NCBI GenBank assembly: GCA_964384035.1
Contig: CAYLIB010000006.1
Span: forward strand, 13,336 to 77,335
DNA from: an uncultured Candidatus Saccharibacteria bacterium
GTDB lineage: Bacteria > Patescibacteriota > Doudnabacteria > UBA920
Direction of reading: 5' to 3'
DNA: 64,000 nucleotides
Shown: in pieces, positions 46,385-62,312 of the stretch
Layout of the letters: each line of letters begins with the position of its first letter
Numbering within the stretch: position 1 is the stretch's first letter
The notes under the pieces: generated by a model
Told to the model about the DNA's origin: nothing
Seen by the model: only the letters and a program-made list of their open reading frames with translations
Databases searched by the model: none
Translations under genes and position numbers: made by a program

Positions 46385-46551
46385 TACAAAAATCAAAAAC
46401 TTCCCCCAGGGAATTCCGGTAAGATCCCGGAGCTGTGCCGCAACCGTAATGTCCGCCTTAGGCGGAACAAGTCGGGTCGCTGAGAGAAGTTAAACAGTTT
46501 CCCGAGCAGGACAAATTTAAAAAAACTTCTCGGGAAAGGGGAGTTTTTTTA
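46385..46551 (+). promoter_or_regulatory. cobalamin-riboswitch-like leader with terminator/antiterminator expression platform
   Basis: cAGGGAAuuCCGGUAAGAUCCCGGAGCUGuGCCGCAACCGUAA matches the Cbl core (GGGAA...GGUGnAAnUCC...GCnG.CCCGCnACUGUAA). P6-like hairpin UCCGCC-UUAG-GGCGGA. Degenerate B12-box-like AAGUCGGG. Mutually exclusive pairings gagaagtt/aacttctc versus tttcccgag/ctcgggaaa. GGGGAG RBS then T7 then ATG. Confidence 0.5.
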
Positions 46552-46552
46552 A

Positions 46553-48697
46553 ATGCAAACCACTGAAACACAATCTACTCAAGCAGAATACCTAGACCCT
46601 GAAAACCCCGAAGGTGTTGTATTTAATCCTGACGATTTTCACAAGCCAGAAGCTATAAGTCCAGAAAAAACCAGCCAGCAGGAAACTCCCGATCAGATAG
46701 TAAACCTGGCTGGTAATTCTCTTGGTCAGGAGTACTCTATATTACACCTTCCTGATTCTAATTTCAGCGGAAGGTACGACGAAGAAACAGACGACATTCA
46801 CTATGAACACAACAACACTACTCTGAAGACTTTTAATATTGGAGGTAAAGAAGACTATAATACGCTCATTCGAGAACTAATTACAGAAGGAGTTGTTTTT
46901 AGAAAATCTGAAGACGAGAAATACGCAACGGCGTGGGTATACGATTTTAATTCAAAAGAGGTGAGGAGTTATGTGCTCAAAGCAGCGCCAAAACCAAAAT
47001 TTGAATATAGTTTTGGTAACGAGGATGACTACACAGCAAACTCAGAAACGGGCGAAGAGCAAATTACAATAAACCTGACTGAACTATTTAAAACAGAGGA
47101 TTCAAATGCTTTGCAAACAGAACAAAAAGCAGAGAGTTTTTTTTCGGTTGCAAGTCTAGCATCTATATTTACCAATAAAGAAAATGAAACCGCTTCTCCA
47201 CAAGAAACAAGTACAGTAGATACTGTTAAGAATATTTTTATTAATACATCAAGGGTAGAAGCTGAGAAGGAGCCAGAAAAAAATTGGCAAAAACTAATCC
47301 AGATAATTTACGAAGAACCAAAATCCATGGAGGCTACTTCTGCCAGAATAGAAGGACTTGAAGAAGATAAGGCAGTGGTTAAGCAAGAGGTAAGGAAAAC
47401 GATTCTTACGCAGTCTGTTGAACCAAAAGAAGTTGTATTAAGAAGTCCTCGTACTGATTCGTCAGAGAAAGATGTTCCCGTTGAGATAAATCATGTGTAT
47501 CCAGAAATAGTAGAATTTGTACATTCCCAAAAAGTGGAATCTGTACAACCACAAACCCCAGAGTCTTTTGAAACTGTCATAGGAGAAGAGGCAGATGGTA
47601 TAGAGGAAGTAGAAAGCATGGTAAACAAAGAGGAAAGTCATCTTAAAAATGAGGTTATTCAGCAAAGGGCAGATATCCAAACACCAGAAACTTTTGTGGG
47701 TACAATATCAGAACCAGTAATCGAGATAGCTTCAGAAGTACAAGACCCCGTCAATTCCACGAAAGTCTCTCTCAAGGAGGGCCCCTCTATTAATCGGACA
47801 CCGGAACTCAAGGAAGATTTTACAGTGGATATTGTGCACAATTTAAAACAAGAAGTTGTGGAATCCGTCAGAAGAATAGAAAGTACCCAAAGCCAATTAG
47901 TTATTCGTCCCGAGGTGCTTACAGAAGAGATTTCGCAGGGAGATAAATTAGAAGAGTCGGTCAAATTGCCAGATCCAAGAAAAATAGAAGATGTTGTGCT
48001 CAAAAAGGAAGTCCTTAATGCTGTTGTAGTAGACGAAATAGTAGAGCTTAAAACATCAGAGCCGACAGAATTACAAAAAACAGAATTTGAACAACCAACT
48101 GAAACCATCGTACAGCAAGCCTTAGAGCAATCCTTTGAAGAAATGACTATCGCAGAACAAAAGCTTACTGAAAAAGATGAAAAATATACGGTTCTGGAAG
48201 TTCTAGAACAAGAAGTAAAACCCCCAATCGAAGCTTTATCCAAAGATTTAAGTCTTAAAGGTGTTACTAAGGTAATCATTCCGGAAGCCAGTACAACCCT
48301 AAATCAAATAAAGCCAAATCAAATAAAAATAGAGGAGGGCTTAGAAAAGCGAACTGAATCATTACACCCTCTTCAAGTCCACAAAGAAGAAGTTATTGTT
48401 AAGCAAGAAGATCTGTTAAGTAAAAGCAATCAAGATATTAAATCTCCTAAGTCAGAAGGAATTACTCAAGAGATATTTATAGGCAGTACGGTTTCGCTCC
48501 AGGTCGAAGACAAGCCCAAAAAAATACCAGAAGTTAATTTAGCAAAAGAAAAAAAACCCGATGTTTCGAGGACTGTCTATATACAAGAAAATTTCCGAAG
48601 AAGATTTTCAGGGGTGGGGGATGTCCAGCAAGAGTCATTTACCACAGTAAATTCTCCGGTGCTAGACTCAAATCTAGTAGCAGAAGTAAGTTCCTAA
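46553..48697 (+). CDS. hyper-acidic low-complexity (E/V/Q/T-rich) protein, predicted intrinsically disordered
   Basis: 714 aa. No TM helix or signal peptide. Long E/K/V/Q-rich degenerate repeats. First gene after the riboswitch-like leader. Confidence 0.6.
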   Translation: MQTTETQSTQAEYLDPENPEGVVFNPDDFHKPEAISPEKTSQQETPDQIVNLAGNSLGQEYSILHLPDSNFSGRYDEETDDIHYEHNNTTLKTFNIGGKEDYNTLIRELITEGVVFRKSEDEKYATAWVYDFNSKEVRSYVLKAAPKPKFEYSFGNEDDYTANSETGEEQITINLTELFKTEDSNALQTEQKAESFFSVASLASIFTNKENETASPQETSTVDTVKNIFINTSRVEAEKEPEKNWQKLIQIIYEEPKSMEATSARIEGLEEDKAVVKQEVRKTILTQSVEPKEVVLRSPRTDSSEKDVPVEINHVYPEIVEFVHSQKVESVQPQTPESFETVIGEEADGIEEVESMVNKEESHLKNEVIQQRADIQTPETFVGTISEPVIEIASEVQDPVNSTKVSLKEGPSINRTPELKEDFTVDIVHNLKQEVVESVRRIESTQSQLVIRPEVLTEEISQGDKLEESVKLPDPRKIEDVVLKKEVLNAVVVDEIVELKTSEPTELQKTEFEQPTETIVQQALEQSFEEMTIAEQKLTEKDEKYTVLEVLEQEVKPPIEALSKDLSLKGVTKVIIPEASTTLNQIKPNQIKIEEGLEKRTESLHPLQVHKEEVIVKQEDLLSKSNQDIKSPKSEGITQEIFIGSTVSLQVEDKPKKIPEVNLAKEKKPDVSRTVYIQENFRRRFSGVGDVQQESFTTVNSPVLDSNLVAEVSS

Positions 48698-48700
48698 AAA

Positions 48701-50368
48701 ATGATCACAGAGTTCGAAAAATTTACATATTATGACCTAAGGTTAGAAGCCGAAAGTGGACGACTTCCTAAAATTACTGGAAGAGAAGACGAGGTCTCGC
48801 GTTTGCTCAGAATAATTTCCAGTACCCTGGGTAGGCACAGTATTCTTGTTGCCGAAAGTGGGGTAGGGAAGAGTTCTATTATTTTCGGTTTAGCCGAACG
48901 TATTGCTCGTACTGGTTGGAGAAAAGGTTTGCCTGTGGCTATGCTTGAACCAAACTCCGCATCTCGTATTGGTCTGCTGAGAGAGGCAGGTTTAGGTCCG
49001 TATTTAAGAGCATTTGAATCGCTGACGAGGGGGGTAATTGTCCTCGATGGTTTTGGCGAATGGGTTTATGAGCAACCCAACTCTCTTTCAAATTGGAACA
49101 GTCTCATAAAACCCCTTCTAAATCTAGATGAAGTTTCTCTCATACTCGCTATGCAACCCAAAGAGTTAGAGTGGCTCAAGGTTCATAAAAGTCATTTTGT
49201 CGCACGGTTTCAAATTGTGAACATCGATCCTCTCCCTATGAAAGATTCACGAACAGTATTAATAAATACTGCTAAGAGGCTAGAGAATGAAACCCTAAAA
49301 ATAGAGGCAAGCGCTATTGAAGCAGCTTTAAATTTACCCGAAAGATTTAAAAGGTTGGGTCCATTACCTAAGTCAGGTATGGCTCTTTTGGACGAAGCGG
49401 TTACAGAGTTAAGGATTAATCCGCTATCTTTTAAATTTAATAAGGTGAATCATGAAATCATAGAAAGAGTAACAGCAAGTAAACTTCATTTACCCTTAGC
49501 AAAAGTAGCAGCAGAGGATATTGCGCGTATAAAAAGTTTGCCCGAGGTTTTAAAGAAGAGTGTTCTTGGTCAAGATAAGGCTATTTCAGAAATAGCTGGG
49601 TTCATTCAGAGATCCAAGTTAGGTTTAAGAAACCCAGATAGACCCCTGGCATCATTCTTGTTACTAGGACCCTCTGGTGTAGGTAAGACCGAAACAGCTA
49701 AGACTCTATCTGACATAGTTTTCGGTGGTACGGGTTTTCTAAGACTCGATATGTCAGAGTTCGCGGCAGAACATAGTGTAGCGAGGTTAATTGGTTCACC
49801 TCCTGGTTATGTAGGGTATGATGTTGGGGGTCAGTTAACAACTCATCTTGAATCACACCCGCATTCCTTAATACTTTTAGATGAAATAGAGAAAGCTCAT
49901 CCAAAAATTTTCGACATATTCCTTCAGGTTCTAGATGATGGACGCCTAACATCAAGTCAGGGAGTCGTAATAGACGCAACCCAATGTATATTTATAGCCA
50001 CCTCTAACCTAGCAGTGGATGAAATCCTAAAAGTAGAGAATTCGGATACAGCTGAATACTTAAGTACTAATATTATTCCTGAGCTTCAAAAGTTCCTTAG
50101 GACGGAATTCTTGAATCGTTTCGATTCTTTAGTTGTTTTTAAGAAACTAAGCGAAGAATCACTAGTTCAGATTGCCTTAAAGGAAATTACTAAAATGGAA
50201 GATCGGTTTAAGAATAAGGGTATAAAATTTAAAGTCGATCCTGTTGTCTTAAAGTCAGTAGTTGCCTCGCAGTCAGACCCACGTTTTGGGGCTCGTCCAA
50301 TAAAACGTCTAGTAGAGAAAATTTGCGAAACAGCAGTAGTAGATAGTTTATTAAATTCAAATCAATGA
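48701..50368 (+). CDS. Clp/Hsp100-family double-AAA+ protein lacking N- and M-domains, with degenerate D1
   Basis: D1: GESGVGKSS Walker A, but Walker B is VIVLDGFGEW (Glu to Gly). D2 intact: GPSGVGKTE, LILLDEIEKAH, sensor ATSN, GARPIKR. Strong similarity to ClpA/ClpB D2 (SVARLIGSPPGYVGY, QVLDDGRLT). Confidence 0.85.
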   Translation: MITEFEKFTYYDLRLEAESGRLPKITGREDEVSRLLRIISSTLGRHSILVAESGVGKSSIIFGLAERIARTGWRKGLPVAMLEPNSASRIGLLREAGLGPYLRAFESLTRGVIVLDGFGEWVYEQPNSLSNWNSLIKPLLNLDEVSLILAMQPKELEWLKVHKSHFVARFQIVNIDPLPMKDSRTVLINTAKRLENETLKIEASAIEAALNLPERFKRLGPLPKSGMALLDEAVTELRINPLSFKFNKVNHEIIERVTASKLHLPLAKVAAEDIARIKSLPEVLKKSVLGQDKAISEIAGFIQRSKLGLRNPDRPLASFLLLGPSGVGKTETAKTLSDIVFGGTGFLRLDMSEFAAEHSVARLIGSPPGYVGYDVGGQLTTHLESHPHSLILLDEIEKAHPKIFDIFLQVLDDGRLTSSQGVVIDATQCIFIATSNLAVDEILKVENSDTAEYLSTNIIPELQKFLRTEFLNRFDSLVVFKKLSEESLVQIALKEITKMEDRFKNKGIKFKVDPVVLKSVVASQSDPRFGARPIKRLVEKICETAVVDSLLNSNQ

Positions 50369-50595
50369 AGATTCAAGAGCAAATAGAGAAAGAGTTCAAA
50401 GAAGCTCTGTTAAACATAAAACCGTATGTAAGTTTAAAGTGGTTACAAAAGGTAGAAGCAAGATTTAAATCTCATAAAGAAGAGCTGGATTTAATAGAAG
50501 CAGGTGAAGAAATACGTAGACATAAGAAATCACAATTCTCAGAGATTCTACCCCCTCAGTATTTTGAGCAAATATTTATGAAAAAAAATGATTGA
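50365..50595 (+). CDS. hypothetical small helical protein
   Basis: 76 aa. Start overlaps the upstream stop (ATGA). Stop overlaps the next gene's start. Confidence 0.5.
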   Translation: MKIQEQIEKEFKEALLNIKPYVSLKWLQKVEARFKSHKEELDLIEAGEEIRRHKKSQFSEILPPQYFEQIFMKKND

Positions 50596-51904
50596 AAAAT
50601 CTGTACTCATCGGAGAAAACGTTTTTAGAAATAATACCACCCCTATTCGCTATAAAGACGCAGACAGGCTTAGGCATATGTATATGGTAGGCAAAACAGG
50701 GTCCGGGAAATCCAGTCTCTTTTTGCAAATGTGCTTACAAGACATATTAGCTTTCAAAGGGGTCTGCTTCATAGACCCCCACGGCGATGCGATTAACTGG
50801 CTTCTTTCAAGAATTCCAAAAGGAAGACTGGAAGACGTTGTGGTTATTAAACCTGGAGATGTAAATTTCCCAGTAGGGCTAAATTTACTAGAAGTCTCCG
50901 CAGGAGAAAATAGTAGTTTTTTGGTGAGTGAACTCATCAATATTTTTTATCGTCTGTTCGACCCAGAAAAAACCGGTATCATAGGTCCCCAATTCGAACA
51001 CTGGCTCAGAAACGGAGCGCTTACAGTAATGGCAGACCCAAACGGAGGGACGCTTTTAGAAATTCCCAAACTCTTTTCCGACAAGAAGTTTGAAAGCTAC
51101 AAAAGACAGTTCATAAAAGATCCGCTCGTTATGGAATTTTGGCAATCCCAGATGTCTAAGACGTCAGATTTTCACCGAAGCGAAATGTTAAATTACTTTA
51201 CTTCAAAGTTTGGCCAGTTTATGGGAGTGGAAACCTGCAGGAACATAGTTGGTCAAACCAACAGCACTATAAATTTTCAGGAAATTATAAATAAAGAAAA
51301 AATATTACTAGTTGACCTAAGCAAAGGCTCACTTGGTGAGCTCACGAGTAAATTTTTAGGCTTAGTACTTCTTGCAAAGCTCCAGTCCGCCGTGCTAAGT
51401 AGAGCACAGATAGGGGAGGGTGAAAGAATTCCCTTTTATTTATACGTAGACGAATTCCAAAATTTTACCACCGACACATTTCTTTCCATGCTGGCCGAGT
51501 CTAGAAAATATGGCCTAGCTGTTCATGTTACCAATCAGTATATTACCCAGTTACCCGAAGCTGTCCGCAAGGCAGTTCTAGCTAGCGTGGGTACGACTCT
51601 CTCTTTCCAAGTCGGTGCCGAGGATGCGGAGATTCTTTTACCGGAATTTTCACCTTTCTCGCTAGAAGACCTAACCAACTTACCAGCAAGAAATTTTCTA
51701 CTAAGACTAATGGTGGACGGTAGGACCACAGAAGCTTTCTCCGGCCAGACCATTAGCCACGACACCCTGCTTTCAAAGCATCTTGCTTTCAGTGAAGAAG
51801 AAACCGTCCCACAAGAACTAGTTCTAGAAGCATCAAGATTAATGCACTCCACTCCTGTAGCCTTGGTGCAAAAACAAATCCTCTCCCGTCTAGGTATAAA
51901 TTAG
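50588..51904 (+). CDS. AAA_10/DUF87-type P-loop ATPase (TraG/VirD4/HerA-FtsK superfamily)
   Basis: Walker A MVGKTGSGKSS followed by FIDPHGD. Walker B-like FYLYVDEFQNF with RKYGLAVHVTNQYITQL (TraG-D_C-like block). No TM segment. Confidence 0.75.
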   Translation: MIEKSVLIGENVFRNNTTPIRYKDADRLRHMYMVGKTGSGKSSLFLQMCLQDILAFKGVCFIDPHGDAINWLLSRIPKGRLEDVVVIKPGDVNFPVGLNLLEVSAGENSSFLVSELINIFYRLFDPEKTGIIGPQFEHWLRNGALTVMADPNGGTLLEIPKLFSDKKFESYKRQFIKDPLVMEFWQSQMSKTSDFHRSEMLNYFTSKFGQFMGVETCRNIVGQTNSTINFQEIINKEKILLVDLSKGSLGELTSKFLGLVLLAKLQSAVLSRAQIGEGERIPFYLYVDEFQNFTTDTFLSMLAESRKYGLAVHVTNQYITQLPEAVRKAVLASVGTTLSFQVGAEDAEILLPEFSPFSLEDLTNLPARNFLLRLMVDGRTTEAFSGQTISHDTLLSKHLAFSEEETVPQELVLEASRLMHSTPVALVQKQILSRLGIN

Positions 51905-51957
51905 TCTTGTAAAATTATGAGGAAATACATACATTTAGTACTAGTAAAGGAGGACTT

Positions 51958-52128
51958 ATGGGTTTCGATCTATCATGGACTCATGTGGAAAATCAACTTC
52001 TGCGTGAGTTGGTCAAACAATACTTGGGCTATCTATTGCTCGGACTCGTAGGAGTTGTTGTGGGGTTATTACTAGTAACCCTAGTAAAGCTCTGTTTATG
52101 GCTTTATGCTTTCAACTTAATGTGCTAA
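51958..52128 (+). CDS. 56-aa hydrophobic peptide (candidate modified-peptide precursor or small membrane protein), not in ORF track
   Basis: AAGGAGG RBS 6 nt upstream. MGFDLSWTHVENQLLRELVKQYLG followed by Leu/Val/Gly-rich core ending LMC. Own terminator immediately downstream. Confidence 0.5.
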   Translation: MGFDLSWTHVENQLLRELVKQYLGYLLLGLVGVVVGLLLVTLVKLCLWLYAFNLMC

Positions 52129-52147
52129 ACAAAGCACTTTTTTATTT
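52122..52147 (+). terminator. attenuator-like terminator directly after the small peptide gene
   Basis: gtgct-aaacaa-agcac followed by ttttttattt. Overlaps the stop codon. Confidence 0.5.
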
Positions 52148-52215
52148 GCCCAGTTATACTTATAATCCATAGGTTAGGGAACCACAGTACTTTTCAAAAT
52201 TCAAGGAGAAAAACA

Positions 52216-53586
52216 ATGAAGATAGCGCTCATTATGTCGCACGGGAAAGTCCATGGTAAAAACGGAATTTTCCAAAAAGCTCTGCGTTACGCTCCGCTCA
52301 CTCTACCTACACTGGCAGCTCTCGTACCTGAAGAGCTTAAAGCGGAAATAACCATCTATGACGAAGGCGTCGAAGATGTAAGCATAGACAAAATTGATGC
52401 AGACATTGTCGGGCTCTCATGTATAACGGGGATAGCTTACCATGTCTACGAAACCTCTGCTCGGCTAAGACAGCGAGGAATTAAAACCGTAATTGGTGGA
52501 TTGCACGCAACACTCTGTCCGACAGAAGCAATGAATTACGCAGACTGTGTTATAACCGGTTTTGCAGAACGAACGTGGCCACAAGCTTTAAGAGATTTTA
52601 GTAATGGTCAGCTTAAAAGTCGTTACGACCAAGAGCAGCCATTCAAATTCGAAGGTATACCAATACCAAGGCGTGATCTCTTAAAGAAAAACGCCTACAT
52701 CACTATGAATACAATTCAGGCAACCAGAGGGTGCTACCAAAAATGCGACTTCTGTGTGGTGCCCAATGCATGGGGGAGTTTCTGGTCCAGACCCGTTCGC
52801 GAAGTCATCGAAGAAATCGAAAAGTTAGACAAAGGTCCATTTCTGTTTCTCGATCTTTCACCAAACGAAGATCCCGAGTACCTAAAGAAGCTCTACAAAG
52901 AACTCATCCCTTTGAAACGCATTTGGGGTGGTCTTGCGACCATCGAAATCTCACGAGATAAAGAACTTCTGAATCTCGCGAATAAAAGTGGTTGTCGCGG
53001 TCTGCTCATTGGTTTCGAATCAGTAAACCAAGAGACTCTTCGTTTGATGGGTAAAGGCAAGCTTAATGTAGCCGACCAGTACTATGAAGACGTAAAGCGT
53101 CTACACGGCGCAGGTATCGGAATTAATGGTTGTTTTGTTTCGGGGCATGACGGAGATGACGAAAGTTGTTTTGAAAGAACGTTAGAATTCGTGGATCGTG
53201 CAAAAATCGACCTACCTCGATTTTCAATCGTAACGCCTTTTCCAGGGACGGCACTTTATAACAAACTCAAGAGTCAAAATCGTTTGCTAATGGATGGTGT
53301 TTCTGGGTGGCAACATTACAACTCGCAAGAAGTAGTCTTTAAGCCCATTGCCATGACACCCGACCAACTACTCGCAGGTCACCAGTGGCTCTGGCGGGAG
53401 GCATATCGTCTTCCTGTTATAGCCCGTAGGTTCTTAGGTTCACCGGCGCTTCACACCGTAATGGCTTTAAAGCACGTTCTGCCAGCCAATATGGCGTACA
53501 GGTTCTTTGCTGACAAATTACCAGAACTAATGATGACCACCTGCGAAACCCCCTCCACCTCCCTCCCCCTGCTCCTGTCCCAGTAG
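52216..53586 (+). CDS. class B (N-terminal B12-binding domain) radical SAM enzyme, paralog 1
   Basis: B12-binding-like N-domain. CYQKCDFC (Cx3Cx2C). Shared blocks LIGFESVN and TPFPGT with the other two paralogs. Confidence 0.85.
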   Translation: MKIALIMSHGKVHGKNGIFQKALRYAPLTLPTLAALVPEELKAEITIYDEGVEDVSIDKIDADIVGLSCITGIAYHVYETSARLRQRGIKTVIGGLHATLCPTEAMNYADCVITGFAERTWPQALRDFSNGQLKSRYDQEQPFKFEGIPIPRRDLLKKNAYITMNTIQATRGCYQKCDFCVVPNAWGSFWSRPVREVIEEIEKLDKGPFLFLDLSPNEDPEYLKKLYKELIPLKRIWGGLATIEISRDKELLNLANKSGCRGLLIGFESVNQETLRLMGKGKLNVADQYYEDVKRLHGAGIGINGCFVSGHDGDDESCFERTLEFVDRAKIDLPRFSIVTPFPGTALYNKLKSQNRLLMDGVSGWQHYNSQEVVFKPIAMTPDQLLAGHQWLWREAYRLPVIARRFLGSPALHTVMALKHVLPANMAYRFFADKLPELMMTTCETPSTSLPLLLSQ

Positions 53587-53721
53587 TATTGAAATTAAGC
53601 ATAGTGAGGGGTGGCGCGGAGGCGGATCCCTTAAGTAGCGCGCAGTGCATCCGAGCACTACTTAAGGTGCCGCAGTGACAGGACCCCGGTGTATTAGAAA
53701 TGGATGTGAAATGGAGATTAG

Positions 53722-55107
53722 ATGAGAGATTCATTTAAAATAACGCTTATCGTTCCGCACGTTGGTCGTAAAGACCCAACCAACTTAAAAGAGTATGTAA
53801 GAACTTGGCAAATGCCGAGTCTCACTATGCCCATCCTCGCGGGTCTCACCCCAAAAGACGTCGAGATTAAATTCTTCGACGAACGCGTCGAGTTCATAGA
53901 CTTCGAAGACAAGACTGATCTCGTAGCCATCACTGTCGAAACATTCACTGCCAAGCGCGCCTACGAAATTTCTGCAATCTACAAAGCACGCGGCACACCT
54001 GTCGTTATGGGTGGCTACCACGCTATGCTAAAACCCGCCGAAGTTTCGCACTTCACAGACGCGTGCATTATAGGTTTTGCAGAAAGTATCTGGCCACAGG
54101 TAGTTAAAGATGCACGCAGTGGAAAGCTACAATCCGTCTACGAGAGAAGCTCTTCAAGCCCCGTAACTTTCGGTATGCCGGACCGCAGAATTTTAGGTAA
54201 GAAAAATTATTTACCTTTGGTGCTCTCAGAAACCGGCCGCGGTTGTCCGCACTCCTGCGGTTTTTGCAGTATTACCTCTGCAACTAAAGCAACCTACTGG
54301 CCTCGGCCCGTAGACGAAGTAGTAAAAGATTTGGCGGAAGCGAAATCTATCGGCATTGGAAGTGACGTCTTCCTCATAGACGACAACATCGTCGGTAATC
54401 CCCGTTACGCTAAGGAACTTTTTACCGCGTTAAAAGATTTGCGTATCCGCTGGTTCAGTCAGGGTACGCTAACTATGGCGCGCGACAAAGAACTTCTAAA
54501 GCTAATGGCCGAAAGTGGATGTATGGGAGTACTAATTGGCTTCGAGTCTGTAAACGAAAAAACTCTTAAGAGCTTCGGAAAAGATTTTAATATTCCGCTC
54601 TTAAGAGATATGAAAGAATCCGTAAAAAGAATCCACGACTTTGGAATCTGCATTTACGGCACTTACATTTTCGGTTACGACGAAAGCCTGGAAGACATTC
54701 TCGCGACCGCACATTCGGCCGAAGACCTAGAGCTTTTTATGGTCGCCTTCAACCATATGATTCCTTTCCCAGGGACTAGGTTGTTTAAGGAACTAGAGGA
54801 TTCTGGGCAACTTACCGACACCGAGTGGTACCTCGATCCCAGTTATCGTTTTGGCCAAACACCCTTTACACCAAAACTCCTCTCACCTAGAGAACTTCAC
54901 GACGCCTGTATTCAAGCAAGGAAGCATTTCTACCGCTATACAAGTATTCTGAAGCGCAGTAGTAACTGGAAGGGGAACCTAACCACTCCCAGCAAAGCTC
55001 TTCGCTATTTCATAATCAACTACCTCCTTCACCGCGAGGTAGGGGAGAAAGATGGCCTACCCTTAGGTAATCTGCCAGCAAGACCGCAATTACTGGCTCC
55101 CGCGTAG
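53722..55107 (+). CDS. class B radical SAM enzyme, paralog 2
   Basis: GRGCPHSCGFCSI (Cx3Cx2C). N-terminal B12-binding-like domain. LIGFESVNEKTL, IPFPGTRLF. Confidence 0.85.
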   Translation: MRDSFKITLIVPHVGRKDPTNLKEYVRTWQMPSLTMPILAGLTPKDVEIKFFDERVEFIDFEDKTDLVAITVETFTAKRAYEISAIYKARGTPVVMGGYHAMLKPAEVSHFTDACIIGFAESIWPQVVKDARSGKLQSVYERSSSSPVTFGMPDRRILGKKNYLPLVLSETGRGCPHSCGFCSITSATKATYWPRPVDEVVKDLAEAKSIGIGSDVFLIDDNIVGNPRYAKELFTALKDLRIRWFSQGTLTMARDKELLKLMAESGCMGVLIGFESVNEKTLKSFGKDFNIPLLRDMKESVKRIHDFGICIYGTYIFGYDESLEDILATAHSAEDLELFMVAFNHMIPFPGTRLFKELEDSGQLTDTEWYLDPSYRFGQTPFTPKLLSPRELHDACIQARKHFYRYTSILKRSSNWKGNLTTPSKALRYFIINYLLHREVGEKDGLPLGNLPARPQLLAPA

Positions 55108-55131
55108 CCAAAACTACGCGGTTTTTATTTT
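55100..55131 (+). terminator. intrinsic terminator after rSAM paralog 2
   Basis: ccgcgtag-ccaaaa-ctacgcgg followed by tttttatttt. Confidence 0.55.
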
Positions 55132-55180
55132 CCCAAATAATCTATATAATATGTGTCATCGAAATAAGGAGGAAATATTT

Positions 55181-56296
55181 ATGTCCAAATATGCTTTTGA
55201 AATTGCGGATGAATCTCACGAAAGTGGGTTAAGAGAAATTTTGAGACAAACAGAAATGCCTGGTAATATCTCACTCTCATTTAGGAGAGAGCCAAATTTT
55301 TTCATTGCTGAAAAAACCGGCAACATCTCAAGTGATGTAGTGGCTGTTAGGGATCTCGATAAAAATAAGCTGGTAGGAGTAGGTGCAAGATCAATACGAA
55401 AAAACTATATAAGAGGTAAAGCAAGTAACATCGGGTACCTAAGTGCTTTAAGAGGGTTACCTGAAATCTTAGGCGGAACGCTTTTGGTCAGAGGTTTTCG
55501 TTACCTAAAAAATCTTCATAAAAAGGGAGAAGTTCCTTTCTACTACACGACCATTTTAGATGAAAATTCCTGGGCAAAGGAAATGCTCACTAGTAAGCGT
55601 TGCGGACTCCCAGTGTACGAAGATCAGGGTATATTAGTAACGCATATGCTACCTCTATATAAGAGACGTTGGAAGCAAAATAATACTCCAGGATTAAATA
55701 TAGTAAGAGTCGGTAGAGTGCCTTACCTCATTCGGCAGGTGTACGAAGTAGTTAACGAATTCAATCGTTACTATGATTACTCGGCTGTAGTGAGTTTTGA
55801 TTCTCTTAGGTCACCTGAACAGTTTTATCCAGGGTTCTCTACAGAAAATCTATTCGCAGTATTCAGGGACGGTCTCATTACTGCTACGCTCGGAGTGTGG
55901 GATCAATCCAATTTCAAGCAAACCGTAGTAACTGACTACAAGGGGTTCTTGAGTTATTTAGCCCCTTTGTCTAGTTTAGGCTCAAAACTCGGTCTAATGC
56001 CGGAATTGCCGAAGATCGGCGGGTCATTTCCTATTCTCTACGCCTGCTTTGTTACTTTAAAACAGGGATATGAGGCGGATATGGCAGTTTTACTGTCCGA
56101 GGTATTGCGACTATATTCAAATCAAGGTTATTATTATTTGCTTGCTGGGAGTCCAAAAGGCAGTCCTGTTGAAAAAATATTCGAATCACAAGAATCCTTT
56201 AGGATCACCAGTACGCTTTACAGGGTTTACTGGGAAGAAGACGCTATCTTTCTTCCAAAAACTCTGGTTCCATATCCGGAAATTGCAACGCTTTAA
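55181..56296 (+). CDS. hypothetical protein (possible GNAT-like fold, weak)
   Basis: AAGGAGG RBS before ATG 55181 (ORF track 55151). 371 aa, no confident motif. Confidence 0.55.
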   Translation: MSKYAFEIADESHESGLREILRQTEMPGNISLSFRREPNFFIAEKTGNISSDVVAVRDLDKNKLVGVGARSIRKNYIRGKASNIGYLSALRGLPEILGGTLLVRGFRYLKNLHKKGEVPFYYTTILDENSWAKEMLTSKRCGLPVYEDQGILVTHMLPLYKRRWKQNNTPGLNIVRVGRVPYLIRQVYEVVNEFNRYYDYSAVVSFDSLRSPEQFYPGFSTENLFAVFRDGLITATLGVWDQSNFKQTVVTDYKGFLSYLAPLSSLGSKLGLMPELPKIGGSFPILYACFVTLKQGYEADMAVLLSEVLRLYSNQGYYYLLAGSPKGSPVEKIFESQESFRITSTLYRVYWEEDAIFLPKTLVPYPEIATL

Positions 56297-56318
56297 ACTT
56301 AATAGGAGGCTACTGAAA

Positions 56319-57035
56319 ATGGCAATAGAGCATGCACGAGTTCTTACTTCGTCACTCTTGAGGTGCGATAGAAGAAAAATGTTCAGTCTCATGGAAGAGT
56401 GCTATTTGGGTATGAGCTGGGTTGAATTCAATCGGGACCTCGCCGAAAAAGACGAAGTAATGATACTCAGCGAAGAAGGGGAGATAGTTGGATTCTCTAC
56501 ATTGGTCACTTTTGACTTTTTAGTCGGTGAACAAATTTGTACAGCCCTTTTTTCTGGTGATACCGTCGTTAGTAAAGATAAGCGAGTCAATATTGGTTTT
56601 GCAAAGGAAATTGTTTCCTACTTCTATCAGAACATAGACTTGGGAAAAAATACTCCTGTCTATTGGACTCTCATAAGCAAAGGATGGAGAACTTTCAGAA
56701 TTCTGCCTTTTCTCTTCAGAGAGTTCTATCCAAACCCCTTTGCGAAAATTGAGAATTCGAGGCTAAAAGAAGTCAGGGATGCATTCGGAAAACACAAATA
56801 CCCGAAGTACTATAAGGAGAGAACCGGTTTAATCCAGTTTCCTACACCAGTTCAAAGACTTAAACCGCGGTCAGATGAAGCAGAATGCAATAGGGATGAT
56901 CCGTATGCAAAGTTCTTCTTCGAAAAAAACCCTGGATACTTAAACGGAGATGAATTAGTTTGTGTAGCAGAAATAAGTATCGAAAACTTCACCCGCTCCA
57001 CCATTAAACTCTTAGGCGATAAATTGCATAAGTAG
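56319..57035 (+). CDS. hypothetical protein (possible GNAT-like acyltransferase, weak)
   Basis: AGGAGG RBS before ATG 56319. ORF track 56070 is a spurious upstream extension overlapping the previous gene. VMILSEEGEIVGFSTL...VNIGFAKEI pattern is GNAT-like. Confidence 0.5.
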   Translation: MAIEHARVLTSSLLRCDRRKMFSLMEECYLGMSWVEFNRDLAEKDEVMILSEEGEIVGFSTLVTFDFLVGEQICTALFSGDTVVSKDKRVNIGFAKEIVSYFYQNIDLGKNTPVYWTLISKGWRTFRILPFLFREFYPNPFAKIENSRLKEVRDAFGKHKYPKYYKERTGLIQFPTPVQRLKPRSDEAECNRDDPYAKFFFEKNPGYLNGDELVCVAEISIENFTRSTIKLLGDKLHK

Positions 57036-57039
57036 AGAT

Positions 57040-58668
57040 ATGAGAAAAATAACGCACTCCGCTATCTTTGTAAGCTGTTATTCAGCGTACAAATCCTGGG
57101 TAGCTAAAACCGCCTCTGTTGAAAATTCCCAGCAGAGGCTTTTATTTTCTATCCTAAATAAAAACAGAAATACCGTTTTTGGAAAAAAGTTTGGTTTTGA
57201 AAAAATACAGAGCATTAAACACTTCCAAGATCAAGTATTCCCACAAGTTTATGAAGACCTTGAGAGTTATATCAAGCGCATGCTTTCAGGAGAAATAGAA
57301 GTGCTTACCGGCGAGAGGGTGCTTCTCTTTGAGCCCACAAGTGGATCAGTATCTGCCTGCAAATACATACCTTATACAAAAGGTTTGCGACAAGAATTTC
57401 AAGCTGGTATAAAGCCCTGGTTATATCTTCTTTATCGTGACTACCCGTCTATCCGCAGTGGCGTACATTACTGGTCTATAAGTCCAAGAGTAACTAGAGG
57501 GCTCACCCAAGGAGGTATTCCCATTGGCTTCGAGAAAGATACCGAATATTTAGGATTACTCTCGCGTGTATTTCTAGATAGAGTTATGGCTTTACCAGGT
57601 GAGGTCACGCATGTTCCTCACATCGAGAACTTTCGCTACCTAACATTGTTATTCCTGCTATCGCATAAGGATCTGACTTTTATATCCCTATGGAATCCCA
57701 CCTTCTTAAAAATTCTTCTCGAAGCCCTCGTTGACTTTAGAGAAAGTTTCATAGAAGACATAAAGTCAGGTTCGTTAAACCCACCTGTAAAGTTATCAAA
57801 AACTCTTAAGGATTATTTTCTTTGGAAATTAAACTTTTGTCGTAGAAGGTCTGTCGAAGTAGTATCTCTGCTTCGTGAGAATCAAGATCCTTATTCCTTA
57901 GCAGGCGCACTCTGGCCTAAGCTATCCCTGATTAGCTGCTGGTCAGACGCAAATGCAAAGGATCAAGCAATAAAGCTTCAAAGAAAATTTCCTTACACAC
58001 CTTTTCAACCAAAGGGTTTAATTTCTACCGAAAGTTTCGCAACATTCCCATATCCTGGTTTAGAAGGAGGAGTGCTTTCTCTAGGTTCCCATTTTTTCGA
58101 ATTTGAGAAGAATGGAAAATACTTCTTGGCCCATGAGATCAGTCTAGGTGAGACTTACTCGTTAGTTGTTACTACAAGCGGGGGACTATATCGTTACCAA
58201 ACAAAAGACCAAGTTAAAATTACGGGGTTTCATAATCAGTGCCCCTCTATGGTTTTTGTTGGTAAAGAAGATTCCATAGTAGATCTAGTTGGTGAAAAAC
58301 TTTCTGAGGGCTTCCTGGTAAAAGTTATGGATGAATTTTTAAATAAATATTCCATAGAACCAGAATTTTGGATGGTCTCGCCGAACCCCATTGGTAACGG
58401 GTATTGTTTGTTTATCAAATCCACTGAAATTCTTCCCGTGAACCTCGCTCTAGAGATAGACATTAAGCTTCGTGGAAGTTTTCACTATTCTTATGCAAGA
58501 ACTTTGGGACAGCTTGAAGAGTTCAAGGTGGTAGCATTGGATAACAATATCAATCCTTCGAAACTCTATCTTGAAACCTGTACGAAACTAGGACAAAAAT
58601 TAGGAGATATCAAACCCAGAAGGCTTCATCAAAGTAATGTATGGTATAAAGTATTTAGTGCAACCTAA
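57040..58668 (+). CDS. GH3-family (acyl-acid amido synthetase-like) adenylating enzyme
   Basis: N-terminal pattern FGKKFGFEKIQSIKHFQDQVFPQVYEDLESYIKRMLSGEIEVLTGERVLLFEPTSGSVSACKYIPYT matches the bacterial GH3 (PF03321) N-region (FGKKY..I.T...FQ..VP...YED..PYI.R...GE...L......F..SSGTT...K.IP). Confidence 0.6.
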   Translation: MRKITHSAIFVSCYSAYKSWVAKTASVENSQQRLLFSILNKNRNTVFGKKFGFEKIQSIKHFQDQVFPQVYEDLESYIKRMLSGEIEVLTGERVLLFEPTSGSVSACKYIPYTKGLRQEFQAGIKPWLYLLYRDYPSIRSGVHYWSISPRVTRGLTQGGIPIGFEKDTEYLGLLSRVFLDRVMALPGEVTHVPHIENFRYLTLLFLLSHKDLTFISLWNPTFLKILLEALVDFRESFIEDIKSGSLNPPVKLSKTLKDYFLWKLNFCRRRSVEVVSLLRENQDPYSLAGALWPKLSLISCWSDANAKDQAIKLQRKFPYTPFQPKGLISTESFATFPYPGLEGGVLSLGSHFFEFEKNGKYFLAHEISLGETYSLVVTTSGGLYRYQTKDQVKITGFHNQCPSMVFVGKEDSIVDLVGEKLSEGFLVKVMDEFLNKYSIEPEFWMVSPNPIGNGYCLFIKSTEILPVNLALEIDIKLRGSFHYSYARTLGQLEEFKVVALDNNINPSKLYLETCTKLGQKLGDIKPRRLHQSNVWYKVFSAT

Positions 58669-58698
58669 ACTGCAACCAGATTGCAGTTTTTTTTATTT
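58667..58698 (+). terminator. intrinsic terminator after GH3 gene
   Basis: aaactgcaa-ccagat-ttgcagttttttttt. Confidence 0.65.
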
Positions 58699-58745
58699 CT
58701 GGGATAATTAAACCGCTGTCCATAAAAAATCAAATAGGAGGAAAT

Positions 58746-60095
58746 ATGCACGTAACTTTTATCGTTCCGCAAATCGGAATGCCCACTAACAAGAAGTATC
58801 TCAAGTCATGGCAAATGGAACCACTGGCTATAGCTATCCTTGCTGGGCTTACCCCCAAGGACATTCAGGTGTCATTCTTCGACGAACGAATAGAGCCAAT
58901 AGAGTTAAATAACAAAACTGATCTAGTCGCAATAACTTGCGAAACCTACAACGCCAAACGCGCATACGAGATATCTCGCATGTATCACACTAGAGGTATT
59001 CCCGTTGTTTTGGGTGGTTATCACCCAACTCTACTTCCCGAAGAAGCAATGCAGTACGCAAGTACAATTGTTGTGGGTCCTGCCGAAGACTGTTGGGAAA
59101 AAGTTTTAGAAGATGCCCGCAAAGGAGAGCTTAAAAGAGTTTACGCAAGAGATAAGTCTCTTCCGATGCGATTTGGTATCCCAGATAGAAGTATCTTCAA
59201 AAAAAAGTCCTATTTCGGAATTCACTGTGTAGAAACGAGTAGGGGATGCCCTCTCTCTTGCGACTATTGTTCCATTACCGCAGTCAACGGCGGAAATTTC
59301 TGGCGGAAACCCGTAGATCAACTAATCGAAGAAATAAAAAACCTTCGTACAAAAAATGTCTTCTTCATAGACGATAACTTTATCGGGAATATACGTACTG
59401 CTAAAGAAGTTCTAAAAGCGCTTATTCCTCTAAATATTCGCTGGTTCTCTCAGGCTACTATAAACGTAGTCAGAGATAAAGAAATTCTGAGACTTCTCGA
59501 GAAAAGTGGATGTGTGGGTTTATTAATTGGTTTTGAATCTACCAATCCTAATACTCTCATGGGAATGGATAAGCCAGTAAATATTAAAGCAGGAAGTTAT
59601 GGTGATGTTATAGAAAGACTTCATAGAAAAGGTATAAGTATCTATGGGGCATTTATTGTCGGTTACGATAATGACCAAGAAGGAGACTTCGATTCCGCAG
59701 TGGATCTTGCCATAAAAAATAGACTTTTTATGTCGGCCTTCAACCATCTCGTACCCTTTCCCGGCACAAAGCTATACAACAAGCTCGAAAAAGAGGGCAG
59801 GCTTTACTATCCAAAGTGGTGGTTAGATCCAGCATTTCGTTTCGGCGACGCTCCCTTCGAACCCCAAAACTTCACCCCAGCGCAATTAAAAGAAATTAGT
59901 CTGGAAGCTAGGCAGCGTTTCTATGAAATTGGTTCAATCTGGAGGAGGCTTTATAACTGGAGGGTTTACAGAAAGCGTCCCAAGATGCTCTATCCTTATT
60001 TGCTTATGAATTTTTTACTCAAAAACGAAGTTACTAAACGCCAAGGCTTCCCCTTGGGTAAGCACAATACCTACCCCCAACCTCTTTTTAAATAA
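58746..60095 (+). CDS. class B radical SAM enzyme, paralog 3
   Basis: SRGCPLSCDYCSI (Cx3Cx2C). B12-binding-like N-domain. LIGFESTNPNTL, VPFPGTKLY. Confidence 0.85.
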   Translation: MHVTFIVPQIGMPTNKKYLKSWQMEPLAIAILAGLTPKDIQVSFFDERIEPIELNNKTDLVAITCETYNAKRAYEISRMYHTRGIPVVLGGYHPTLLPEEAMQYASTIVVGPAEDCWEKVLEDARKGELKRVYARDKSLPMRFGIPDRSIFKKKSYFGIHCVETSRGCPLSCDYCSITAVNGGNFWRKPVDQLIEEIKNLRTKNVFFIDDNFIGNIRTAKEVLKALIPLNIRWFSQATINVVRDKEILRLLEKSGCVGLLIGFESTNPNTLMGMDKPVNIKAGSYGDVIERLHRKGISIYGAFIVGYDNDQEGDFDSAVDLAIKNRLFMSAFNHLVPFPGTKLYNKLEKEGRLYYPKWWLDPAFRFGDAPFEPQNFTPAQLKEISLEARQRFYEIGSIWRRLYNWRVYRKRPKMLYPYLLMNFLLKNEVTKRQGFPLGKHNTYPQPLFK

Positions 60096-60176
60096 AGGAG
60101 GTTATTTTATTGACTTAATTTATATAGAGTGGTATCTTGTCGTATCCACGACGCTACAATTTTTGGAGGATTAAAT

Positions 60177-60929
60177 ATGTCAGATAAACACGCCGATTTA
60201 CTTGATTTTCTAGCGGAAATCAAGGACGATCCTGAAATGAAAGCACATTTAGCCAACAGAAAACCGACGATAATCTTGGTTGGTCTTTCTGGGAAATCCT
60301 GCCTCGAAGTAATTCAAGCAAACAAGGAAGCAGGCATTCACTCTACCGTTGTTGTTTATAATGACTCTTTGCGTGAAGACTTGGCAAACTCGTTAGGATT
60401 GAAGTCGTTGACTTCGGGGCGAGACAGGGTTAGTGGGGGAGAATTGGTTAAAATCAAGACTTTCCCCGTTACAGAAACTCCTAATTATCAGTGGACGTCC
60501 GAATTAGTAGACCCCGGTGAATTCAGAGTCGCTGGAATTGTATTTGCAATTGCCAAGTATGATCCCGCGAGCCGCTGGGATGATGCAGGCTATTATCTGA
60601 ATCGGGACAAGCCTCAGTTCGAAAGAATACCTGCCTGGTACATCCATCAGGTTTTAGCGGATTCTTTGGGTCTAGCAATAACACTCGTAAACGCCTATTA
60701 CGATGAACTCACAGAAAGTGATAGTTTCATATTAGTAGGCCAAGATAGCAAAGACGAAACAACCCAAATACAATTCGTCACTGATTTCCTAGGTACTGTA
60801 GTTGCCGGCTACTTTGGTGGTCTATTTATGTATTACGGGGCTGATAAAGTTGATGTGCAGAACAACGAAACGGAAGCCCTGCAGTCAATAGAGCACCTAA
60901 GGAAGGCTGTTATTGAATCGAAAAAATAA
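60177..60929 (+). CDS. hypothetical protein with Nif11-like N-terminal segment
   Basis: GGAGG RBS before ATG 60177. ADLLDFLAEIKDDPEMKAHLANRK...EVIQANKEAGIH resembles the Nif11 leader-type domain (LKAFLEKVKxDxxLQEKLKAA...VVAIAKEAGF). Confidence 0.5.
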   Translation: MSDKHADLLDFLAEIKDDPEMKAHLANRKPTIILVGLSGKSCLEVIQANKEAGIHSTVVVYNDSLREDLANSLGLKSLTSGRDRVSGGELVKIKTFPVTETPNYQWTSELVDPGEFRVAGIVFAIAKYDPASRWDDAGYYLNRDKPQFERIPAWYIHQVLADSLGLAITLVNAYYDELTESDSFILVGQDSKDETTQIQFVTDFLGTVVAGYFGGLFMYYGADKVDVQNNETEALQSIEHLRKAVIESKK

Positions 60930-60958
60930 AAGACACAACTATGTGTCTCTTTTTATTT
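60927..60958. terminator. bidirectional terminator (convergent genes)
   Basis: aaaaaataaaagacaca-actat-gtgtctctttttattt. Confidence 0.65.
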
Positions 60959-62126
60959 GCCCGTCATATCTAATACCCACACTTGTCATTTCCTTACGAG
61001 AGACCCCAAATTTTATCGACTTTATAAATAAGTATAAAAAAATATACGGAAGCATAATGGCTGGTAAGGGGTCATTGATTTTAAAGATAACATCCTTACC
61101 GTTTATGAAATCATTTAGCCATAGCTTTAAACCATTAATATTCCTTACTTTTCCGAACAAATAAAAGATCATCATTAACTTTATCTGTGGAAACTTGCTT
61201 GTTTTTTCTATTATTAATCCTTTCTTTCCGGTATAAATAGAGTTAGCAAAAATTTTAGGTTTTTCGAAAAATAAATTAATACCACTTGTAGGTCTTGGAT
61301 TGCATTCAATCGGGTATAATTTACCCATCTCATTTTCTATGAAATCAAAGCCAAAATTCCCGGTTAAATTAAGTTTCTTGCCAATAAGTTCTATAGTACG
61401 AAGTACGTTTTTATTTTCAACGGCACGGTAAAGAAAATGAGCCCCAAATTTTAGATGGTAAGGTGAACTATAAGTTACATGATTTAACATTTCACCATTT
61501 TGAAAACAACTATAAGAACAGAATTCCTTCCCCGCTATAAACTCCTGAACCACCCAGGGATTGTCTGGGCCTATATTCAGACCGGAAACATTGCTTATGG
61601 AATCCACCTTTCTTACATAAGCACCAAATCTAGAATAAACAGGTTTAATAAACAACTCATGAGTAGTACTGCTTAAAACATCTCTCATCTGCCCCACACT
61701 TTCTACAAGAATTGTTTTCGGAGTATTTACACCCAATGATCTCGCATACTCTATAAAAGTAAATTTATTATGTAATAAATTCAAAGTCTCTATTGTAGAA
61801 CAAAATAGCTCGCACCCCAAAGGCAGTCTGTCCTTGAAACTAGCCAAGTAAAAAATCTCTTCACACACAGGCACTATTAGATCAATGTTTTTTTCCTTAA
61901 CTAAGTTGCATATAAACTTTTCATAACCAACTAAATCCGTTGAGGGTGGGGGAGTAGTTATATACTCATAAATATTATTTGAAAAACTAACAAGTGTATT
62001 TTTAATACAGTCAGCACCAAAAACCACATAACCCGCTTCCCTAAAAAGCCTCGTCACCCCCAAAGCCACCGGCGACCTCCCTCCAGTAATCAAAACCCTT
62101 CCCCGTTGCCCAACCCCGAAACTCAT
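60939..62126 (-). CDS. ATP-grasp family ligase
   Basis: N-terminal RVLITGGRSPVALGVTRLFREAGYVV (pre-ATP-grasp Rossmann). Central ATP-grasp-like region (VVQEFIAGKEF, ECNPR). Confidence 0.6.
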   Translation of the reverse strand: MSFGVGQRGRVLITGGRSPVALGVTRLFREAGYVVFGADCIKNTLVSFSNNIYEYITTPPPSTDLVGYEKFICNLVKEKNIDLIVPVCEEIFYLASFKDRLPLGCELFCSTIETLNLLHNKFTFIEYARSLGVNTPKTILVESVGQMRDVLSSTTHELFIKPVYSRFGAYVRKVDSISNVSGLNIGPDNPWVVQEFIAGKEFCSYSCFQNGEMLNHVTYSSPYHLKFGAHFLYRAVENKNVLRTIELIGKKLNLTGNFGFDFIENEMGKLYPIECNPRPTSGINLFFEKPKIFANSIYTGKKGLIIEKTSKFPQIKLMMIFYLFGKVRNINGLKLWLNDFINGKDVIFKINDPLPAIMLPYIFLYLFIKSIKFGVSRKEMTSVGIRYDGQIKRDT

Positions 62127-62160
62127 GATTTTGTCTTTTAATTAGAATTAATAGTAGCAG

Positions 62161-62247
62161 GTTATCGGGAAGAATATTTTCTCCAGATGCGACTTGAGGG
62201 GAAGGGCCCCCTCCGGAGCAGATGGAGAAAATATTCTTCCCAATAAC
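62161..62247. repeat. large imperfect palindrome (24-bp arms, one mismatch) with GC-rich core in a divergent intergenic region
   Basis: gttatcgggaagaatattttctcc (62161-62184) versus ggagaaaatattcttcccaataac (62224-62247). Centre has gagggg-aagggcc-ccctc. Confidence 0.65.
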
Positions 62248-62312
62248 CGACATTAGAGTAGTTGCATCAAAGTAAGTCAAAATCTATACTACTACCAAAG
62301 TAAATTATACAT

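Follow-up and report, generated by a model that had tools for sequence, protein, structure and literature searches.

The window analysed here, a stretch of 64,000 nucleotides from an uncultured Candidatus Saccharibacteria bacterium, contains a small open reading frame (ORF) between two gene series. The upstream series is an operon common across Patescibacteria, which encodes a 714-aa acidic protein, a ClpB-like AAA+ protein, a 76-aa protein and a VirD4/TraG-like ATPase. The downstream series consists, in order, of two B12-binding radical-SAM genes (rSAM1 and rSAM2), X (~370 aa), Y (214 aa), a GH3 enzyme, a third radical-SAM gene (rSAM3) and a 266-aa protein, and is ended by a convergent ATP-grasp gene (PRK06849-like). 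The features around the small ORF are, by position:

50588-51904, + strand: gene of the VirD4/TraG-like ATPase, with which the conserved upstream operon ends
51885-51978, + strand: run of 94 nt free of substitutions between two haplotypes, reaching from the final 20 nt of the VirD4-like gene across the whole 53-nt spacer into the first 7 codons of the ORF
51907-51935, + strand: candidate promoter of the ORF's own, TTGTAA-17 nt-TACATT, which matches the consensus at 8 of 12 positions and so falls short of the scan threshold
51947-51953, + strand: Shine-Dalgarno sequence AAGGAGG, followed by the 4-nt spacer ACTT and then the ATG
51958-52128, + strand: the ORF, 56 aa, stop codon included; the gene is on 9 public contigs and its sister allele (P0002) is intact
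52030-52113, + strand: hydrophobic segment of transmembrane type (codons 25-52), with G29xxG32xxxG36 and a single Lys44
52122-52147, + strand: weak element resembling an intrinsic terminator, with a 5-bp stem GTGCT/AGCAC, a 6-nt loop and then T6ATTT
52161-52166, + strand: TATAAT box (CTTATAATC, kept in the sister contig L006), a candidate -10 element for separate transcription of the radical-SAM operon, a good -35 element being absent
52216-53586, + strand: rSAM1, the first B12-binding radical-SAM gene (Pfam B12-binding and Radical_SAM), with its own Shine-Dalgarno sequence AAGGAG at 52203-52208
53722-55107: rSAM2, the second B12-binding radical-SAM gene

The ORF runs from ATG to TAA on the + strand and encodes the 56-residue peptide MGFDLSWTHVENQLLRELVKQYLGYLLLGLVGVVVGLLLVTLVKLCLWLYAFNLMC, which is exactly the translation given in the initial annotation of this DNA. 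There the gene was described as unannotated, which holds for the ORF track used at that first stage and does not hold for public records: the NCBI, JGI and Logan gene callers all include the gene, although nameless. The ribosome-binding site had been described as ideally spaced; AAGGAGG is indeed a strong Shine-Dalgarno sequence, but a 4-nt spacer is at the short end of the range rather than ideal. This 7-mer is uncommon, with 10 copies in the 64-kb window, and shows a tendency to mark starts: 4 copies lie 3-10 nt 5' of a start codon that opens an ORF of 30 aa or more, and in three of these cases the ORF has 100 aa or more. If the candidate promoter at 51907-51935 is used, the 5' UTR would be about 15 nt long.

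The peptide is extremely hydrophobic in its C-terminal half. Residues 25-52 are almost all Leu, Val, Gly, Phe, Trp or Tyr, with a lone Lys44, and the best 19-residue window has a mean Kyte-Doolittle hydropathy of 2.76, which ranks first among the 178 ORFs of 40-80 aa in the six frames of the window; the peptide thus has a hydrophobic stretch long enough (19 residues or more) to be capable of spanning a bilayer. The same property is visible in the last 32 codons, where T is the second base in 20 but the first in only 11 and the third in only 7; this bias is specific to the reading frame and counts as an intrinsic coding signal. AlphaFold2, run on the single sequence, models the peptide as helical, with a continuous helix over residues 3-55 and a mean pLDDT of 91, a result to be read with the caveat that single-sequence AlphaFold2 readily gives helices for hydrophobic peptides. 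The helical N-terminal part that had been proposed earlier (the tryptic-friendly MGFDLSWTHVENQLLR) falls within this predicted helix, and the Leu/Val/Gly-rich C-terminal part ending in Cys is also as described: residues 25 to ~52 have that composition and the Cys codon is the last before the stop. Sub-threshold Pfam matches of the peptide are weak and are to generic transmembrane anchors (TM_PetC and TM_ErbB1).

The 3' end of the ORF lies inside a hairpin. The sequence GTGCT-AAACAA-AGCAC occupies 52122-52137, with TTTTTTATTT directly after it (52138-52147); the TAA stop at 52126-52128 extends across stem and loop, and the last Cys codon is also within the hairpin. With a stem of 5 bp (3 of them G-C pairs) and a folding energy of -6.1 kcal/mol (z = -1.05; 28 of 200 shuffled sequences fold equally well), the hairpin by itself is not beyond chance, and the G+C-rich stem-loop directly 5' of a U-tract that typifies a terminator is present in a weak form. 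Stem and T-tract are identical in L006, where the loop AAACAA has become AACTA. The hairpin, T-tract and embedded stop codon of the attenuator-like terminator that had been proposed are all present, and the sister lineage keeps them; the element has little strength, however, and a role in terminating the upstream unit would explain it no less well. The same layout, with the stop codon inside a hairpin, is found 3' of rSAM2 (55100-55121), GH3 (58667-58689) and rSAM3 (60079-60103), in each case with a stronger stem; its repetition points to a habit of a compact genome and not to the mark of a precursor gene. Beyond the hairpin, the spacer before rSAM1 (52129-52215) is 72% identical to L006 as a whole and is poorly conserved apart from the TATAAT box at 52161-52166, which may mark the promoter of the radical-SAM operon. 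An Rfam scan of 51700-52400 at E<=10, which included the cobalamin and SAM riboswitches, gave chance matches only, all far below the gathering scores.

Relatives of the peptide were sought widely. A word-indexed search of 5.8 billion clusters and a full phmmer search of 1.84 billion representatives both returned only the peptide's own 90% cluster; no family of Pfam, NCBIfam, PADLOC or PHROGs is matched; and no homologue was found in viral contigs or in collections of phage and plasmid DNA. The suggestion that additional precursor paralogues might be present finds no support in the window, where a relaxed tblastn search detected none. As judged from these databases, the gene appears to be an orphan, found in two closely related Saccharibacteria lineages only.

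The small gene is situated at a lineage-specific junction between the Patescibacteria operon and the radical-SAM cassette. At loci of three other Patescibacteria that carry the same operon (with VirD4-like proteins 61-65% identical), the operon stops at the VirD4-like gene, a convergent gene lies 52-111 nt past it, and the radical-SAM cassette is absent. A gap of 52-111 nt leaves no room for the small ORF, which by this comparison is not a conserved member of the upstream operon. The G+C content of the cassette side (0.45-0.49) is somewhat higher than that of the upstream side (0.36-0.42), consistent with horizontal acquisition, and the cassette was probably gained by horizontal transfer; among direct or inverted repeats that could mark the ends of an island around the ORF, none involve the ORF itself. 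With more than 4100 homologues at E<=1e-30, rSAM1 belongs to a large family, but its nearest relatives beyond the two lineages are only 65% identical. The best PDB match of rSAM1 is an unnamed radical-SAM protein (9ccb). X has weak GNAT matches in 6 of 17 homologues and Y a weak Acetyltransf_9 match, and PDB sequence and profile searches with X and Y returned nothing significant. In the literature, we found no paper on GH3 combined with B12-binding radical-SAM clusters.

All public contigs with the gene collapse to two haplotypes, so that comparative statistics are weak throughout. The second haplotype is represented by L006, a syntenic contig of a Candidatus Saccharibacteria MAG with ~80% nucleotide identity to the window, and its allele of the ORF (P0002) is intact and differs by T8S, V10M, L18V, L28F and L49F. 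The 10 changes in the ORF are thus 5 replacements and 5 synonymous substitutions, and the probability of at least 5 synonymous changes among 10 under neutrality is 0.09-0.21. All 5 replacements are conservative (BLOSUM62 >= 0; p about 0.035), the GxxGxxxG face has the same three glycines in both alleles, and frame +1 is the sole one of the six frames to be open in both haplotypes. The initial annotation had proposed a Ka/Ks below 1 as a check; the value is indeed below 1 (dN/dS = 0.29), but with two haplotypes it is not significantly different from 1, and it is 4-6 times higher than the 0.045-0.07 of the neighbouring genes. The probability that no stop codon would arise in 10 substitutions is about 0.5. 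Translation signals are accompanied by an ORF that is kept, with signs of protein-level constraint, in the sister lineage, in a comparison whose power is low because it has two alleles.

Divergence between the haplotypes is distributed very unevenly around the ORF. The interval 51885-52147 is 95-100% identical, compared with 65-80% in its flanks; the 53-nt spacer 51905-51957 is 100% identical, compared with 39-79% for other spacers in the region; and the dS of the ORF is 0.14, compared with values from 0.66 to saturation for its neighbours. Other patches of high identity are seen at 51050-51275, 52850-53850 (dS 0.13) and 55250-55650. Given comparable patches elsewhere, short recombination tracts are a sufficient explanation for the high identity over the ORF; alternatively, and with weak support, the patch could reflect constraint at the nucleotide level rather than on the protein. 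The mRNA segment 51935-52150 folds better than shuffled sequences (z -2.67), and in this fold the Shine-Dalgarno sequence is able to pair with the 3' U-tract. In the two-sequence consensus fold, which has no covariation power, the pairing differs from that of the single-sequence fold and double-sided changes number zero. One apparent compensatory change in the first stem (A-U to U-G) is lost in this consensus fold, and a structured RNA is therefore not claimed.

Taken as a whole, these observations make it likely that the small ORF codes for a real protein. Its opposite, that the ORF is non-functional (a chance or very young open frame, the DNA being kept by a recombination patch or by flanking promoter and terminator elements), is unlikely, even though it would agree with the orphan status, with the mosaic identity profile between the two lineages, with a dN/dS above that of the neighbours, and with the expectation that a frame stays intact about half the time through 10 substitutions. 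What it leaves to coincidence is a rare AAGGAGG that is well placed, the top hydropathy among 178 small ORFs, the bias to T at codon position 2, the sole open frame of six and five replacements that are all conservative; a combination of this kind is improbable by chance and argues against a chance ORF.

Granted a real peptide, it could be a membrane peptide like those of type I toxins, held in check by the structure of its mRNA and/or by an antisense RNA, a reading that we think improbable. Such a toxin would account for constraint at the nucleotide level, which fits the unusually low dS of 0.14, the invariant 5' region, and the folding of the mRNA (z -2.67) with its pairing of Shine-Dalgarno sequence and 3' U-tract; the peptide also shares with Hok/Gef, Fst, TxpA and TisB its small size, single hydrophobic helix, narrow (here orphan) distribution, nucleotide conservation and structured mRNA, and the gene borders an island that was probably acquired. 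The antisense side of such a system, however, is not apparent: no pair of antisense promoter and terminator was found, there is no minus-strand terminator near the ORF, and the minus-strand promoter-like sites are weak and lie only within rSAM1 (52259/52260), in a consensus scan whose consensus is not established for this phylum. Covariation is absent, the consensus fold is unlike the single-sequence fold, and no Pfam toxin family, PADLOC or PHROG entry is matched. The transmembrane helix of the peptide is C-terminal, whereas in most Fst, TxpA or Hok-type toxins it is not. The conserved patch, finally, is equally explicable in non-functional terms, as the high-identity patches at 51050-51275 and 52850-53850 point to recombination behind the low dS.

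Comparably doubtful is the reading of the ORF as a regulatory leader, in which translation up to the stop codon hides the 5' arm of the hairpin, termination tracks the spacing between ribosome and polymerase, and the peptide itself is unimportant. In pyrBI-type attenuation, termination is coupled to translation and the leader ORF runs into the terminator. The present ORF similarly ends inside a hairpin with a U-tract just 5' of an operon: its stop codon is within 52122-52137, where, to judge by the geometry of established ribosome footprints, a ribosome would cover the stem; stem and T-tract are conserved and the loop alone varies; and the rSAM1 start is 88 nt downstream. The layout is nevertheless generic in this genome, as stop codons lie in hairpins after rSAM2, GH3 and rSAM3 also, and it is thus no dedicated device. 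An ORF of 56 codons whose replacements are conservative, whose product has a coherent transmembrane helix and whose Shine-Dalgarno sequence is strong shows protein-like constraints, unlike a leader indifferent to its sequence. No competing antiterminator helix occurs in the MFE or consensus folds (two sequences giving no covariation power), and no codon runs are seen; homologous cassettes are without such a leader, and the TATAAT box kept 3' of the hairpin points to an independent promoter.

The main reading of the initial annotation was that the peptide is a RiPP precursor, with residues 1-24 as leader and residues 25-56 as a core modified by the B12-binding radical-SAM enzymes, for example by C-methylation as in polytheonamides, and with a leaky terminator that sets a high ratio of peptide to enzyme. 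This we regard as very improbable, although the arrangement is suggestive at first sight. The gene lies 88 nt upstream of three B12-binding radical-SAM genes on the same strand, a weak hairpin and T-tract stand between the ORF and the enzymes, and the peptide adjoins the cassette in both known lineages. The core is rich in Val and Leu, the residues methylated by PoyC-type enzymes (PMC5682303). PoyA with PoyB/C and the bottromycin-type precursors offer a parallel, having, as here, a short ORF directly 5' of B12-binding radical-SAM genes with a C-terminal part rich in Val, Leu and Gly (PMC5682303); relative to PoyA with PoyB/C, the present locus has no NHLP-type leader, has CxxxCxxC enzymes, has a cassette that is conserved without the peptide, and has no epimerase, peptidase or exporter among its proteins with Pfam matches.

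The decisive comparison concerns the cassette in other organisms. An rSAM1 homologue is present in all of 84 homologous loci, most of which also have rSAM2 and, if the contig reaches that far, X and GH3, and the series rSAM-rSAM-X-Y-GH3 is kept in dozens of loci of other organisms in which the peptide is lacking. A phmmer search without filters, with both alleles against 8,678 small ORFs from the 84 loci, gave no match. Hydrophobic small ORFs 5' of the rSAM1 homologue are no more frequent on the coding strand than on the other: in the 69 loci whose upstream sequence is 450 nt or longer, they make up 9 of 201 small ORFs on the coding strand and 8 of 195 on the opposite strand. Five of those on the coding strand end no more than 350 nt from rSAM1, and a Shine-Dalgarno sequence precedes none of them. 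When 1,048 intergenic small ORFs from the cassette loci were clustered, no family was present in more than 5 loci, and the families found in a few loci look like frame artefacts at contig ends. The annotation had itself named homologous loci without an intact ORF as the finding that would overturn its precursor reading, and this is what the homologous loci are.

The enzymes and their partners also differ from those of RiPP pathways. The radical-SAM proteins score 19-66 bits against RiPP families whose cut-offs are 282-750 (19.6-23.4 bits for TIGR03975, cut-off 281.85; 38.7-66.6 for ApyD, cut-off 750) and fall far short of the threshold in every such family, and their best scores are with the non-RiPP families HpnJ, BchE and PhpK. 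All three have the canonical CxxxCxxC motif (C173, C177 and C180 are invariant in A1), whereas in PoyB/C and the bottromycin methyltransferases, which C-methylate peptides, the motif is Cx7Cx2C (PMC5682303). In the peptide, no leader family or cleavage motif (NHLP, Nif11, double-Gly) is matched in Pfam or NCBIfam at E<=10, bar transmembrane and Myb fragments at chance level, and the hydrophobic segment taken as the core is like an ordinary transmembrane helix. The Pfam content of the cluster is limited to B12-binding/Radical_SAM, GH3, weak GNAT and ATP-grasp; a recognition element, a leader peptidase and an exporter are absent from the four cluster proteins with Pfam matches, the other three (X, Y and the 266-aa protein) being without assignment, so that a divergent recognition element could still lie among them. 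OlsH, the sole characterised bacterial relative of the GH3 family, makes N-acyl amino acids (PMC12493201). As conserved partners, GH3 and the weak-GNAT proteins are more in keeping with a pathway for small molecules or lipids than with one for RiPPs.

As the peptide is adjacent to the cassette in both lineages, a lineage-specific recruitment remains compatible with these results, the peptide being just no part of the ancestral cassette; that the cassette has recruited a newly arisen peptide as substrate or membrane-embedded partner in this Saccharibacteria lineage only is nonetheless the least probable of the readings considered. If it were true, the recruited peptide would be a C-methylated, Val/Leu/Gly-rich, membrane-spanning product, functionally polytheonamide-like, from an ultra-small episymbiont.

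We therefore favour a simpler reading, offered in the initial annotation as a fallback and favoured here by the hydropathy, the predicted helix and the conservative replacements: the ORF is probably a genuine, lineage-restricted gene for a 56-residue single-pass membrane micro-protein, which would most likely serve as a small membrane accessory factor. Small single-pass accessory membrane proteins such as AcrZ, KdpF, MgtS and CydX have ~30-60 residues and are often both lineage-restricted and missed by annotation. The peptide resembles them in its size, in its one helix and in having its own ribosome-binding site, and it offers a GxxxG-type face available for helix packing; it differs from them in that it has no sequence relationship to any of them, in that its transmembrane helix is at the extreme C-terminus, and in that it is found in only two close Saccharibacteria lineages.

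For this membrane micro-protein we hypothesize the following course of events, in which insertion into the membrane, the transcript boundaries and the accessory role are what we infer; the ORF with its ribosome-binding site and hairpin, the hydrophobic helix, the intact allele in L006 and the lack of the peptide elsewhere are what the analysis shows. Transcription of the small gene would either continue from the upstream operon by read-through or begin at a weak promoter within the invariant 53-nt spacer, and the weak hairpin and T-tract at the stop codon would end this transcript, at least partly; the radical-SAM operon beyond it would have a ribosome-binding site, and probably a promoter, for itself. 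Translation would depend on the strong AAGGAGG of the small gene, and the peptide would form a polar or amphipathic helix (residues 1-24) followed by a Leu/Val/Gly-rich transmembrane helix (residues 25 to ~52) with a GxxxG-type packing face, and almost nothing would extend beyond the membrane segment. It would not be a substrate of the radical-SAM enzymes; in the membrane, it would most likely act as a small accessory or modulatory subunit.

For the precursor question, a cheap comparative test was enough to settle the matter: does the peptide travel with the cassette? The locus is unsuited to mining as a RiPP cluster, and a short ORF beside radical-SAM genes was misleading in this case. A more promising subject than the small gene is the widespread and apparently uncharacterised cassette beside it, which encodes two B12-binding radical-SAM proteins, two weak-GNAT proteins and a GH3 enzyme. 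The small gene is by kind ordinary, an unnamed addition to the small membrane proteins: it is one more orphan membrane micro-protein, in a phylum whose genomes are so tiny that each retained gene holds some interest.

The region carries a B12-binding radical-SAM (rSAM)/GH3 cassette, accompanied in this Saccharibacteria MAG by three additional genes (coordinates are window positions):

52216-58668, cassette core: two B12-binding rSAM genes, a protein of ~370 aa (X), a protein of ~214 aa (Y) and a GH3-family enzyme
58746-62126, further cassette-side genes: an extra rSAM (rSAM3), a 266-aa protein and a PRK06849-type ATP-grasp protein

The gene order of the cassette is kept in dozens of metagenome loci among the homologous loci compared (L007-L010 and L014-L093). 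No curated family matched the cassette above threshold, and literature searches turned up no paper describing such a gene set; weak GNAT matches were obtained for 6 of 17 homologues of X and for Y. G+C content is slightly higher across the cassette in the window, and on this compositional ground the cassette was likely acquired horizontally by the Saccharibacteria lineage.

The start of X is ambiguous (55151-56296). An AAGGAGG motif at 55166 with 8 nt of spacer points to 55181 as the more likely start, giving a product of 371 aa, in agreement with the JGI gene call. A 321-aa open reading frame (56070-57035) overlaps X, and gene callers prefer a 214-aa product starting at 56391.

Terminator-like sites number 19 in 12.5 kb (12.4 +/- 4.4 in shuffled sequences), and several hairpins and one inverted repeat stand out:

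55100-55121, 58667-58689, 60079-60103 and 60931-60948, strong hairpins with T-tracts that overlap the stop codon or directly follow it, at rSAM2, GH3, rSAM3 and the 266-aa/ATP-grasp pair
57112-57139, a terminator-like hairpin stronger than any other in the region: 10 bp with 6 G-C pairs, then TTTTATTTT
62160-62190 and 62218-62248, a 31-nt inverted repeat, its arms 90% complementary and 27 nt apart

The hairpin at 57112-57139 is intragenic rather than intergenic, lying within the GH3 coding sequence (start 57040) towards its 5' end, and the inverted repeat occupies the spacer from which the ATP-grasp gene and a gene for a PspC-domain-like membrane protein diverge.

Upstream of the cassette lies an operon that is conserved among Patescibacteria (found in the window and in L011-L013, contigs of other members of the group):

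46553-51904, upstream operon: a large acidic low-complexity protein, a ClpB-like AAA+ ATPase, a 75-103-aa protein and a VirD4/TraG-like ATPase

The VirD4/TraG-like ATPase (~425-438 aa) has >2200 homologues at E<=1e-20, and Pfam annotates no N-terminal membrane domain in it.

In the 56-aa peptide encoded between operon and cassette, residues 7-22 (WTHVENQLLRELVKQY; 51976-52023) matched the first helix of Myb/SANT repeats below threshold (PF13921; E 0.03; 14.9 bits, cut-off 22.9), a similarity that is probably due to chance. The 9-mer CTAGTAAAG has two copies in the conserved patch: one overlaps the Shine-Dalgarno sequence of this small gene (51941-51949), and the other lies within the gene (52081-52089), where it adjoins the near-palindrome GGGTTATTACTAGTAACCC (52063-52081).

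Compared with L006, the syntenic contig of a sister lineage, positions 46400-59450 form a mosaic of nucleotide identity between the two Saccharibacteria lineages:

51050-51275, 51885-52147, 52850-53850 and 55250-55650, patches of 92-99% identity against a background of 65-80%

Where dS was computed for gene patches (51050-51280 and 52852-53586), it is ~0.13-0.25, against 0.66 or more over entire neighbouring genes. The low dS within these patches, together with the mosaic profile, suggests that the two Saccharibacteria lineages have recombined recently.
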